A stretch of DNA of 64,000 bases from Laetmonice hystrix (Eukaryota). Within the stretch, counting starts at the first letter, position 1. Each line of letters starts with the position of its first letter. The notes beneath the pieces were generated by a model that did not search any database, was not told the origin of the DNA, and saw only the letters and a program-made list of their open reading frames with translations. Shown in pieces: positions 15,721-21,800 of this stretch. The stretch covers positions 36,086,001 to 36,150,000 of the forward strand of contig OZ249436.1 in assembly GCA_965235115.1 (NCBI GenBank). Direction: 5' to 3'. The position numbers and the translations under genes were made by a program.

Positions 15721-15825
15721 TCACGGCGGGTCGGTTAGTGACAATCCGTCATCAGACAGATCGGAGTTAGTGGAGGTGGAGTCGGCAGTGTCAGGGTCGT
15801 AACCACCACCAGCCAGCTCCCCTTC
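15721..15825 (-). CDS. Candidate DAPK terminal exon ([34 protein letters not shown])
   Basis: ggttttcag acceptor, phase 0, GC-rich coding-like segment in AT-rich intron, ends in TGA. Confidence 0.6.
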   Translation of the reverse strand, partial: EGELAGGGYDPDTADSTSTNSDLSDDGLSLTDPP

Positions 15826-18800
15826 CTGAAAACCAACAAGTCCTCATCAACCAAGTGTAAACAAATGGTACCCTGTCCGGTAATTCTGTGCACAACCTTT
15901 CCTAATCCAGGCCTTTACCGTGGCTGCTCTGTGATATTGGCTTCTTTAATTGTTTTGAATATAGTGTTGCATCTTCAAATGATCACAATATAATTTCGTA
16001 CTTCTTCGGAATACCCATTATTTTTATAGTACGAGTACTCTCTGTAGCTATAGTTCTTTTGATAACTGCTCCACTCCCAAAAATGAATAACTAGAATTCC
16101 CCGAAAGCACAGGAACTACTTTTTCTTAAGATATATCATTTAGACATAAAAAAAACACATTAACAATACACTGTGCCACATATAGATCCAGACCAACATA
16201 CATAAATGCAGGACTTAACCTAACACAAAACACAGGTCATCTGTGAGAAAAGCAGACACAAGAGACGTGATTCATGAAGTAAACAGGAGGTGAGACTTAC
16301 AAGGGTCTAACTGGGGGCTAGGCGGCAGACCTCGGTCTCTGGTTGCAGACACCCGCATGTACTCTTCATATCACACCAACATAACGGTCAAACAGACTAT
16401 GACGCGGTGTACAATACACGGTGGGCCGGCTGGCGCGGGTAGGGTACTCTTTAATTCTATTTACATGGTGTGGGGTAAAGTAAAGACACAGCAGGGGGTA
16501 ACTTACTCGTACGGAAACTCTTAGGCCAAGGGATATGGTTAATCACTAGAAATCCATACCATCTCTGTCGCTGGATTCTAATAAATTTCAACCATTTTAA
16601 AACCTGCCCCTTCTTTTAACTTCAATATCACTCATCAATTGAAACCATCCTACTTAAACATTTGTTTGCTATATTTTATAAACAAAACTATTTCTGGAAT
16701 GCACAAGTCATTCATAATTGTTGAGTGTCACAATTATAATGAAAATGTTAATGGTACGTCATGACGATCTAGATTTAACAAATTATGTATACCGTAGAAA
16801 TTATAAAAGAAAAAACCTGAATATATATATACAGCTGTTCTATATGCCAACTAAAATGTACACTAATGTAAATAACGAAAGCTATGTGTGTGGCCGTAGT
16901 GTAGACTTCCTGTGTTAACCCTTGGTTCGTGTCGATAGGAACATTGGCAGGGTGTCATGTCAGTGGTTGAGCAGAGCTATTTATCTAGTTGTGTACCTGT
17001 AGTCAAGAGCCTACGTCCCCTAGGGTCCTCTATTACAGAACCCTGCATGAACTGACGTCCTCTGATGCGTGTTTTAGATATCTAACCTTCCAAGTGGACA
17101 GGTAAATATCAGCAAACAGGTGGTCCCTTAACATCAAAGGACCAAGGGGCAATCGTTGTGTTTGCCAGGTAAGCTGGACAGACGTGACTGAATTGTCTCC
17201 GAGTGTCAATACGGAGCCAGTCACGGAGTTTCATCAGCAGGTGCTCGGAACCTGGCTTTCTATCTGTGCGCAGGTAAAGGAATAAATGTGTGACGATTAA
17301 CGTTCTAATCAGTATGGTGACCTTTAGTGGCTGCAACATGTCTACGTCTGTGTAGTTCTCTTGAAACAAGTAAATCGGAAGGGACGTAAGTATTTACGTC
17401 CGAGTTCTTCCACTTGGTGGCATGAGACATAATTATGGAGGTTTATTTGGAAAGACATATTTCTCTATATATCTATATATATATCATAATTATATATAAA
17501 TATAATGTAGTTTTAAGAACTATCATCTCTAGGAACATACAGGTCCACCGGACCTGTATTCTGGAGATACCTGTAGTGGACCCATATTCAAGGGAAACTT
17601 TGATATCTATTATACCTCAACATGAACACCTCCATTTTCTGTCTTCGTGACGTTAGCCGTGAATACTGGGGTAATCCAAACTTTGTTCACACACCCTTAC
17701 GAACAAATACTACGGGACTGAGTGTGGGGTTATAAATTCACTTATCCATCCGACCCGTGTCATATATTACTGATCCCCTCTCACGTATTCTGACACGTTC
17801 AATTTGTAGAATCTCAAAGTTATGGCTCATAAATGATGCATGATGTAGACCTCCTGTTTGAGGGACTATGGGGAAAGTCTTTACAAAATGTGTGTGCCGG
17901 GGGCTATTAGTCGGGCGGGGGCAGGGGTAGGTTTTCAACGTACACCTGTTTGTTTGCTACAGTCTGTCCGCGATAATTCATCTTAAACAAAACTGGTACC
18001 GGTAAACCCACTCTACCATAAGCTGTTGTCGCAGGTCCTTATGTAAGAAACACAACGCTTCAACCGGCCGACATTCCCCAAACTCAGGGGTTCTTACCGC
18101 TGAGTACCAGTAAGCCTAAAGTATCCCCGCCAAAACCAAGGCACGGAGGGTGAGTATTTATAGTCTCATTAGATACCTTCTATTGGTTCTGGATGACCCT
18201 TTGACCATTTATCTCCCGATCTGAAATGTATTGGATTGTGTGGGAGGGCAGACTGATACGGCACCTGCTGAGACAGTCTGCTGCTCATTACTGGAACAAT
18301 GTGGAGTGTGGGCGAGGTACACGCCTGGGTGCCATTTAACTGCAGCAATCATTAGGACACTCTGATAGCTTCACAGAACAAGGTATCATTATAAAAGAGC
18401 TCTTTCTGTTTGGTGCTTTTACCTGACATTCTCTGATTATATCAGTTAGATAACGGTTTGGAATTACAATACTGTGAAATGGACTGTAAAACTAAGCTGT
18501 CAGGGTTACCATGGCAACACTATAAATGCTTCCTTTTTCCCAACCACTGCCCACCTTGACTACCTACCAACCAACCAACCAACCAACCAACCAATTTCAC
18601 CGACCTCCACTCTAACTCAGGTTGACAGAGACGAAGCATCCCCGACACCATGCCATTTCAAAACCTCTTCAGAATCATCTCCCCTGACCTTCAGGATACA
18701 GGTACTCCTGGTTCTGCTCACACCTCTGACATGTCTCAATCCGTCCGGCCACCTTTCCATCCCATCCTTACCGCCTGTTTTCTCATTCTTGACAACTTTC

Positions 18801-21800
18801 CATCCCGTTCGGAGAACCTTTCCACCCTATTGAGACCGTCTATCCAAACCACTGACCACCATATATTCTGTCCACCTTATCCGCCCCAATCTGGTCATTT
18901 TTATCGACCTTATTTTGGACACATTGCCCAACCCAGCTAACGTCGTTTCCACCCCCTTCTGGCCACCTTCGCCCCTACACTGCACGTTCTGCATGGCCGA
19001 CCATCACGCTCTAACAGTTTCTCAAGGAAGGCGGCATGCAACTTCTGGGGACCGAATTCATCGCGAGTCTATCGTGTTCTGATACTTTAATAATGGGCCT
19101 CAAAGCTGTTCTCACTTGGGGCGGTAGACGATCTGGGGCGGCACACAGAATGCCAGGTGTTTTGGGGCCCAACTGAATTCTACCTGGTAGGCAGGTGAAA
19201 AAGGTCAATGCAACATGATATAATAGAGATACATTTTGAACATTCACTTTACACCTTCACCTGCGTCAAAATTTTGTATTTGATGTTAGGATTTCACAAA
19301 AGAGATAACCACAGCTTACAAGATCGAGTGACGTCTTAGCCGATAAAAATCGAGACACAACTCCGCGTAACTTTGAGTTCTTTCACCGATGAGAAATGCT
19401 CCCACGGGTTACTGAGTGTGTGTGTGTGTGTAGGGGGGGGGGGTTAGGTAGGAATGATATGTTGATTAAGACAACCCTTTGAACCCTACTCTTCGTGACT
19501 AGGCCTGGCCTTCATTTACCACAAGGTGAGCTCTGAAACCCTCAAACCATTGTCTATTTATAGACCCTTAGGGAGTTTGGGTTTATTTCTCCCAGGTCAA
19601 AGGCGCATACGACCGCATACTATGCCGGTTTGCCGGTGTTTCTAAGTCACTTTCCAAACACCCAGGTAATCAAGTCGTGAGTGTACCGGGGTACTTGCCT
19701 CACGCCAGGCACCTTGCACGAGAATGGTACCAAACGAGTGAAGATCCCTTCGTTCATTATTAAATAAAGATAATTTGTTTTAAGGATGAAAGGTGAAATT
19801 GTCAGACGGGTAATGTGTACTTACATCAGACCTGATGGGTCATGAAATCCTTTTCAGGTAACGTGTACATGTATCTCGGACTAGCTATAGACTACATGTA
19901 TATTATTATTAGTCCAAGCTTGCTTAAAAAATATGTATATATCTTCTCTCAACAATAGATGTTTTATTTTTACCCCCCCCCCTTCGAAAAACAGTAAATA
20001 ATAGAAAGAAAATGTTATTTGTCCAAGGCATGCACCAGAACTAGCCAGTCCCCTTAGGCTCATACAATTACGTGTACATGTTCAAGGTGTAATGAACGTG
20101 ATCAATATGTGACGGTTCTGTGAACAGCCAATCTATAGAAGCAGGTGAACTGATGAGGTTTTTATGGGGATTTCCCGGCATCGCCACGCCATTCTATGAA
20201 TGACAATACTGACACAATTCCCACAATGAAAAGGTAACTGGATGATCGATAATTGTGCTGGCCGCACACGACTGTCGAAACGAAGAATCCTATAGATCTG
20301 ATTAAATACGCTACATTTCAATTTACTGTAGAACAAAGCTATGGGTATGGTAGGTAGGCTTAGCCTTATTCATCAAGTAAAGCTCCTGATCCTATATGAA
20401 AAATAGAGTTAGACATTTGCTGGCATGAAGAAACTGGGAAGTCAGGGGTGAGGTGTGAGGGGGGTGGGTGGTGAGGTGGGAGATAAAATAATACAAATAC
20501 AAACACTTTCAGACAAAGTTAGAGATTTTTTCCTTTGATATCCTGGGGCTTCAGAACGAAATGATCAACTTCAAGTCATCTTACTATCGAAAAGACATAT
20601 GGATTACACACCACACTAAAACCGCATCCAAAACTCTGTCACACAAGAGGGGATCCAAAAACTGATTATATAAGTGCGAGTTCATATATCAGAATTTCAG
20701 ATCCGGTATTTCTGAGACAGAATTGGGAATGGGGGCTCAGTTACGAATGAGATTTCGACCGTGACGACAAGTAACAAATATCAATTTGTAGACTAAGGTA
20801 CATATAGACAGTGTACACCACGAGACGCACACACTGAACACAGTAAAGGTTTGATAGGCTTGTCTGACTTACCTGTCCGCCTGTGTGCGATATGTCGCCA
20901 TTAGCCTGGGCCAACTTTCTTTGGGAGGCGCTTTTTTGAAGTCGGTTACAAAGTGACACAACTGCAACTGATTGCTGAAAGCAGCAATAAAATATTATGA
21001 AAACGAGGGGGGGAGTTAACATAATGAAATATCTAATGAGACTCAAACAATTTTCCATCAACATCAATAGTCTGGATTACCGAGTGATTGAAATATCTTA
21101 AAGGAACTGCGAGGGTGTAGCGTGAAGTATTTTAAAATTAATTTTTTTGAATAAATAGAAAAAAACGCTGACCTTCCATCTCTTCCTAGCGACAAAAGAT
21201 TTGAGGTTCTGGGTGTTTATTAAAGAATTCCTCCGGCTCAGTTCTTGTGTCATCTCCTGGGGCTGCAAAATTAACCATTCACACAAAACCTCACGTCATT
21301 ATTCAGTGGGAAATTCAATATTACCACTACTCTTACACCTTGATGGTCAAGGCTACACACACATTTCCTGAACTTACAGACTAAATGGGTGAACAAGTTC
21401 GACTAATGGAGTCCCTAAAGCAATGTGAACAAGGAAATAGTTTCTTGCCTGGATCCAGGGGTGATCCAGGGCCTCTAAAACACAGGCTCGCTTCCTGAAA
21501 CATTCACAGCATACCGGTAGTTTGAAACGCCACACCCTGGGCCTAAATCATTTGTTTGCCCTGATAAAACATATGTGTGGATGCTTGACGTATTTCCCAG
21601 AAGCAAAATAACATATTTTATATCATTTCAGACGGAGAGAAAAAATGGGTGCCTTCATCTGCATTCAAATTTTTCTGAAAATATTCAGCTGTTCAATTAT
21701 AATAAAATTATCTTTGATGAAAAAATAAAAACGTATACCGTGCATCTGTACATGTATATAAATAAACTAGCGGAGGGATGAGGTAGTTTTATTGGCTAAT

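Follow-up and report, generated by a model that had tools for sequence, protein, structure and literature searches.

We analyzed a 64,000-nt window of the Laetmonice hystrix genome (GenBank assembly GCA_965235115.1, contig OZ249436.1, positions 36,086,001 to 36,150,000 of the forward strand) and found a DAPK gene on its minus strand, in which exons for the kinase and the calmodulin (CaM)-regulatory domain are followed by a candidate last exon at 15825-15721. In our preferred reading, to which we give a probability of roughly 55% on sequence grounds, this is likely the only DAPK gene of the annelid, 15825-15721 is an alternative last exon within a long intron, and the ankyrin exons lie to the left of the window. 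Here, we describe the gene and its candidate last exon and then weigh this reading against its rivals.

The gene runs from 46884 to 15721 in 10 exons (all on the minus strand) that total 1116 nt and encode 371 aa plus a TGA stop, with no internal stops. The predicted protein consists of a kinase, a CaM-regulatory domain, and a 34-aa acidic tail; the span that was originally noted (15721..21262) corresponds to the final three exons. Exon 1 (46826..46884, 59 nt) begins with the ATG at 46884 and was matched by a kinase hidden Markov model (HMM) at E 0.014. It lies in a stretch with a promoter-like CpG observed/expected ratio (0.8-1.05 across 45001-49000). Exon 2 (41562..41783), placed by the model and alignment, encodes the kinase N-lobe with the catalytic Lys41, the DAPK basic loop, and Glu63. 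After a 17.5-kb intron 2, the kinase continues in exon 3 (23898..24036; catalytic Asp138), exon 4 (23617..23740; DFG at 158-160 and activation segment), exon 5 (23300..23375), and exon 6 (22063..22215), all placed by the model and tblastn and the first two also by alignment. Exon 7 (21449..21494) ends the kinase domain in phase 0 in the gene model; its donor makes the following intron GC-AG, while all other introns are GT-AG. This donor is needed for colinearity with DAPK1 and with P0002, the nearest relative in our searches. The CaM-regulatory domain is split between exon 8 (21173..21262), which includes Ser286 and Trp302 (DAPK Ser289 and Trp305), and exon 9 (20873..20974), which includes Ser305 (DAPK Ser308), both placed by the model and alignment. 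All of the catalytic residues and the basic loop are intact and align to DAPK1. The phase-0 donor of exon 9 at 20873 is the highest-scoring donor in the gene, and it joins exon 10 (15721..15825; 34 codons plus TGA) across a 5047-nt GT-AG intron. The initial annotation had proposed this phase-0 exon and the open 371-aa model, and its exon coordinates proved correct.

The segment 15825-15721 is the best last-exon candidate in the stretch, and we consider this predicted exon likely to be used in transcripts. Its GC content is 59%, compared to ~41% in the surrounding sequence, and the bin above it has single-copy read depth. We scored splice sites with textbook frequencies, and coding potential with a three-periodic score trained on the exons of the window. 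An earlier pass with an acceptor cut-off of at least 3 (16 candidates) excluded the exon, whose acceptor scores 2.9; the cut-off was then lowered to at least 0, leaving 61 phase-0 candidates. Among these, 15825-15721 ranks first with 8.9 bits, and its score is clearly positive only in the frame required by exon 9 (0.3 and -0.2 bits in the other two). The encoded 34 residues include nine D/E, nine S/T, and no K/R.

Alternatively, 15825-15721 may be intronic and resemble an exon only fortuitously, or the transcript may end elsewhere, after a different acceptor or by reading through exon 9; the gene would then be an ordinary long DAPK with an intron of more than 20.8 kb. We regard this as improbable, though several results fit it. 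With a consensus matrix, 28 of the 1295 AG sites outscore the acceptor, which thus places 29th; the acceptors of the gene itself span -0.6 to 6.0. Among 139 null candidates, 2 had coding scores as high as 8.9 bits, a rate at which one such score in 61 candidates would be unsurprising. Real exons withheld from the training scored -5.6 to 12.2. The tail has no homologue among the collected proteins, P0002 included (best E 1.3), and gene predictors split DAPK at exactly the CaM/ankyrin junction. The closest AATAAA past the stop, an uncertain poly(A) signal 800 nt downstream (14916..14921, minus strand), falls inside a high-copy element (14360-15188). On the other side stand the top rank in solely the required frame, the GC content, the single-copy depth of the adjoining bin, and the recurrence of acidic Ser/Thr-rich tails with few or no basic residues in P0138, Littorina, and Nucella. 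Read data do not bear on this question: three runs of one sample over 4500-24300 behave as genomic contigs across introns and are uninformative on expression, as is the lack of a match to the 20873-15825 intron among the joints listed from them. A metagenome scan (15 of 64 parts, 80 loci kept) gave no annelid transcript; the only locus above 50% identity, L001, encodes a long, 1512-aa DAPK of another animal.

None of the ankyrin, ROC-COR, or death-domain exons of long DAPKs were found in the window. The initial annotation had reported their absence from the remaining ~20 kb, and our searches agree. With six long DAPK1 proteins, tblastn gave no match better than E 0.35 outside the kinase and CaM exons, and 507 proteins searched against bases 1-20860 gave a single match at E<=0.05 (E 0.012), on the plus strand, which is the wrong one. 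HMMs for ankyrin (22 sequences) and ROC-COR-death-domain (24 sequences) had best E values of 3.3 and 2.4 over the 3467 six-frame segments of the whole window. As a control, a kinase+CaM HMM built from the same set of proteins recovered nine of nine kinase/CaM exons (E 4e-33 to 0.014), including the 46-nt exon; thus, the absence of the long-form domains inside the window is real. Pfam searches of 48 open reading frames (32 of them from bases 1-21076, a subset of 334) showed nothing DAPK-related left of exon 9, and DAPK2-X1/ZIPK-type proteins had no match there. A ZIPK-like leucine-zipper alternative exon was not found either; the kinase/CaM intron at that point is 186 nt. An Rfam scan of bases 1-30000 returned no matches at gathering score. 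The missing ankyrin exons nonetheless argue only weakly for a short gene, as the window leaves just 20.9 kb for them while intron 2 alone spans 17.5 kb; by the same measure, a 20.9-kb gap before the ankyrin exons is in scale for this gene.

The initial annotation had named kinase-domain phylogeny as a check, and the trees group the gene with annelid DAPKs, not with vertebrate DAPK2. The nearest relative, P0002, is a 367-aa kinase with a CaM domain and a short tail on a 1251-bp contig (72% identity over 342 residues). Its AlphaFold model, based on six sequences, had a predicted local distance difference test score of 42.8 and was not used. A quick tree of 63 rows with MLCK-type outgroups (16 of 79 rows were left out as near-duplicates or gappy models) places the window gene with Capitella, Lamellibrachia, and four further sequences with a Shimodaira-Hasegawa-like approximate likelihood ratio test (SH-aLRT) support of 97. 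In a mixture-model tree of a chosen subset of 43 rows, it joins P0002, P0003, and P0005 (99/92) within a wider annelid group that includes Capitella and Lamellibrachia (94/88); Owenia falls outside, its placement unresolved. A 100/100 branch parts all DAPK rows, the window gene included, from the two outgroup rows. In neither tree do the short DAPK entries form a clade; they lie beside long DAPKs from the same phylum. Altogether, the sequence comparisons assign the window gene to the DAPK subfamily (DAPK1/2/3) as an annelid DAPK.

We also considered whether the gene is a true DAPK2/DRP-1 orthologue, which would make DAPK2 older than vertebrates. The layout is the same, the length is similar (371 versus 360-370 aa), and kinase identity to DAPK2 is ~62%, but identity to DAPK1 is equal. 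In the 43-row tree, vertebrate DAPK1/2/3-type rows form one 100/100 clade that excludes the window gene. Constraining the gene with four vertebrate DAPK2 rows in an approximately unbiased (AU) test on a chosen subset of 27 rows lowers the log-likelihood by 103.9 (p-AU 9e-95). Orthology is refuted under that model, and we give it almost no weight. Because of the annelid placement in the trees and the AU rejection of the DAPK2 grouping, we treat the gene as an annelid DAPK. The DRP-1-like architecture that had been proposed therefore stands in layout and length (371 aa) but does not reflect orthology (AU p 9e-95), and the tail lacks both the basic stretch and the SSTS end of DAPK2.

Other animals depart from the long DAPK sequence at the same point. 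Among 120 matches listed in a short-form protein search restricted to 201-643 aa, 16 are named invertebrate entries from 15 species. Those of Capitella and Pollicipes continue into the first ankyrin exon and then stop, while most others depart from the long sequence directly after the CaM exons. This CaM/ankyrin junction is where the DAPKs recorded in databases for molluscs, echinoderms, and a barnacle part from their long relatives; for example, the barnacle-type P0325 matches the long Amphibalanus P0260 in 366 of 367 residues before diverging at the junction. The vertebrate DAPK1 entries P0207 and P0156 also end here. In Lytechinus, five RefSeq isoforms differ only past the junction. Alternative tails show conservation across species: that of Littorina matches that of Nucella (E 1.8e-5), and the X1 tails of two sea urchin genera share 60% identity over 186 aa. 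Transcript-like, short, uninterrupted open reading frames occur on contigs of 1.2-3.0 kb (P0002, P0138, P0125, P0473, and four ark-clam-like contigs, which have one four-residue ending in common), and the Strongylocentrotus X2 tail was found again on an independent 1319-bp contig. RefSeq already names the short sea urchin, crinoid, and shrimp entries "DAPK2-like," although these are automatic labels; the short form, which had been taken for a vertebrate duplicate, is accordingly less singular than proposed. The idea of an alternative last exon gains from the sequence model and from relatives that branch at the same junction, while the splice itself is predicted.

Two further tail types came up among these relatives. 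The 519-aa sea urchin RefSeq X1 proteins P0128 and P0470 end in a conserved, tail-anchor-like hydrophobic stretch of ~20 residues, so a membrane-bound DAPK isoform is possible; the X1 tail had no usable match in the ESM Atlas. P0003, P0005, and P0465, from the clade nearest to the window gene, are without both CaM exons and carry a long, mutually conserved acidic tail directly after the kinase, at the branch point of vertebrate DRP-1beta/ZIPK. This suggests a calmodulin-independent annelid DAPK form. An exon matching the tails of these three proteins was not found in the window, in searches that included the P0003 and P0005 tails themselves.

Several points in the database record weigh against our reading, as do the null scores and the lack of a tail homologue described above. 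Some short entries are artefacts, split gene models among them: in Apostichopus, the same-scaffold neighbours PIK61275 (319 aa) and PIK61274 (995 aa) form the halves of a 1401-aa RefSeq gene, and crustacean and planorbid short entries end at the donor or are flagged partial. Other short entries resemble genuine last exons. No named annelid or sea urchin occurs among the best 120 of 3059 matches in a long-DAPK search with a cephalopod-like query. In the 43-row tree, none of the nine other annelid or annelid-clade rows is full-length; only the Capitella model has an ankyrin exon. We thus have no full-length annelid DAPK among the sequences found, which keeps a detached kinase gene in play as a live rival. 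Such a gene would always end at 15721, and the ankyrin-ROC-COR-death-domain part would form a separate transcription unit downstream, lie on a paralogue, or have been lost from the lineage. The RefSeq isoforms of Lytechinus variegatus (X1-X5), Strongylocentrotus (X1-X2), and Anneissia (X1-X2) fit this rival in being all short (353-519 aa), as does Ciona DAPk, which has a different extra-catalytic part of its own (PMC3050894). We still consider a detached kinase fairly unlikely. The Capitella orthologue ELT88671, itself a gene model, has the first ankyrin exon joined to its CaM exons, and a long DAPK is retained in Lingula, Lineus, molluscs, and holothurians. Moreover, the long-DAPK search covers only its best 120 matches to a cephalopod-like query, and the trees contain no separate short clade.

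Under the reading that we prefer, that of an alternative last exon, splicing from 20873 to 15825 combined with intronic polyadenylation would give the 371-residue short kinase, and skipping of exon 15825-15721 would give a long DAPK with ankyrin, ROC-COR, and death domains. By analogy with DAPK1 and DAPK2, Ca2+/calmodulin would activate the short kinase, autophosphorylation at Ser305 would hold it off, and, as in DAPK2, phosphorylation at Ser286 may switch it on (PMC5931534). It is predicted to be soluble because the anchoring domains of the long form are missing. Dimerisation via the basic loop is possible, and the 14-3-3 brake of DAPK2 is absent from the predicted protein. The short kinase thus resembles DRP-1 in layout, and likely also in regulation, and may act in a DRP-1-like way without being a DRP-1 orthologue.

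A kinase-less form may also arise, from a promoter inside the same intron. In databases, Physella X4, Lingula X4, Haliotis rubra X3, and Mytilus galloprovincialis X5 are kinase-less isoforms in which an N-terminus of their own leads to the first ankyrin exon. In the window, a minus-strand open frame at 1218..1445 (76 codons, two ATGs, an acidic end at a phase-0 GT donor) sits below a GC- and CpG-rich block (~1600-3100). It is a weak candidate for an alternative exon, first or internal, that would splice to ankyrin exons beyond the left edge of the window. It ranks first among 15 first-exon candidates, yet 4 of 35 nulls score equally high. The frame has no Pfam support and only unnamed ESM Atlas matches at 0.86 or lower. 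Leaders of the four kinase-less isoforms gave a best E of 0.34 against bases 1-20860 and left 1445-1218 unmatched, which counts against our preferred reading. Taken as a whole, the 1218-3100 block may be an internal promoter, a nested gene, or an old mobile element. It also holds the strongest donor of the stretch (2649, minus strand), and its plus strand is coding-like as well, with a strong acceptor at 2229.

More tentatively, the ancestral bilaterian DAPK may have been a two-module locus, with alternative last exons and an internal promoter in the CaM/ankyrin intron. On this view, DAPK2 would represent an old short isoform that became fixed once the gene had duplicated, and annelids and sea urchins may have split the modules. 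The products of the intron would be a short DRP-1-like kinase and a kinase-less ankyrin-ROC-COR-death-domain scaffold. If invertebrate DAPKs already make both forms, the origin of DAPK2 would be a partitioning of isoforms after duplication, not a new design. A two-module locus would also account for the "DAPK2-like" names given by annotation pipelines and for their gene splits at the CaM/ankyrin junction. On its own, the locus is a modest result, a DAPK orthologue of the ordinary kind that probably has a short isoform.

The surroundings of the gene include several other features. A plus-strand gene with Pfam PTPLA hits, which we take to be HACD3-like, begins ~1 kb from DAPK exon 1 in a head-to-head arrangement (45001-53000), and the two share one CpG-rich stretch between them; human DAPK2 and HACD3 are presumably both at 15q22. 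The minus strand at 55900-63500 carries two genes, one matching Pfam WRNPLPNID (55939-56214) and the other resembling ionotropic glutamate receptors (Lig_chan hits at 59516-61472). Intron 2 includes two minus-strand tRNA-like stretches (25500-25900) that have no Rfam match and are probably heads of short interspersed elements. The high-copy element at 14360-15188 has 126-nt inverted ends. Minisatellites occupy 7-460 (41-46-nt units) and 3233-4056 (42-nt units), the second of which keeps a 284-codon open frame.

Compared with the invertebrate DAPK/DAPK1 pro-orthologues (Capitella ELT88671, Lingula XP_013389887, C. elegans DAPK-1), the window gene has the same kinase basic loop, CaM domain, and Ser289/Ser308 equivalents, but within the window its CaM exons are succeeded by a stop exon in place of ankyrin, ROC-COR, and death domains. 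In C. elegans, a kinase-only DAPK fragment showed no movement and no rescue, while a kinase-less fragment formed moving puncta and worsened mutant defects (PMC5053806). DRP-1 and ZIPk are described as vertebrate-only, with one DAPk in invertebrates; the design of kinase, CaM domain, and short tail is placed at the origin of jawed vertebrates, the source of the DRP-1 tail exon is given as unknown, and DRP-1 is cytoplasmic (PMC3050894). Although the design is described there as vertebrate-only, short forms are known in databases for many invertebrates. Our literature searches yielded no study of short invertebrate DAPK isoforms, and the excerpts of PMC12408332, PMC11463336, and PMC4177888 contain nothing on them; this does not establish their absence from print.

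The RefSeq "DAPK2-like" proteins of Lytechinus (XP_041464811-14), Strongylocentrotus (XP_030832558-59), Anneissia (XP_033120600, -602), and Palaemon (XP_068246443) likewise have an invertebrate DAPK kinase and CaM domain and then, from the same junction, short or low-complexity tails, several per gene. Their tails are unrelated in sequence to the window tail, and the Palaemon entry resembles donor read-through. Two vertebrate forms also vary the extra-catalytic part. In DRP-1beta, alternative exons swap it so that a ZIPK-like exon replaces the CaM domain (PMC3050894), and the human s-DAPK-1 is intron-initiated, starting in intron 13-14 without the kinase (PMC12192072). Neither of these is a kinase+CaM short form of a long gene. 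Vertebrate DAPK2/DRP-1 shares the layout of kinase, CaM domain, and a tail from a short exon (PMC3050894, PMC5931534). However, the tail here has nine acidic and no basic residues, while two DAPK2 tails have seven to eight basic residues and end in SSTS, which is a 14-3-3 site (PMC5931534). The window gene is not an orthologue of DAPK2/DRP-1, and its short form is likely an isoform of a long gene rather than a duplicate.

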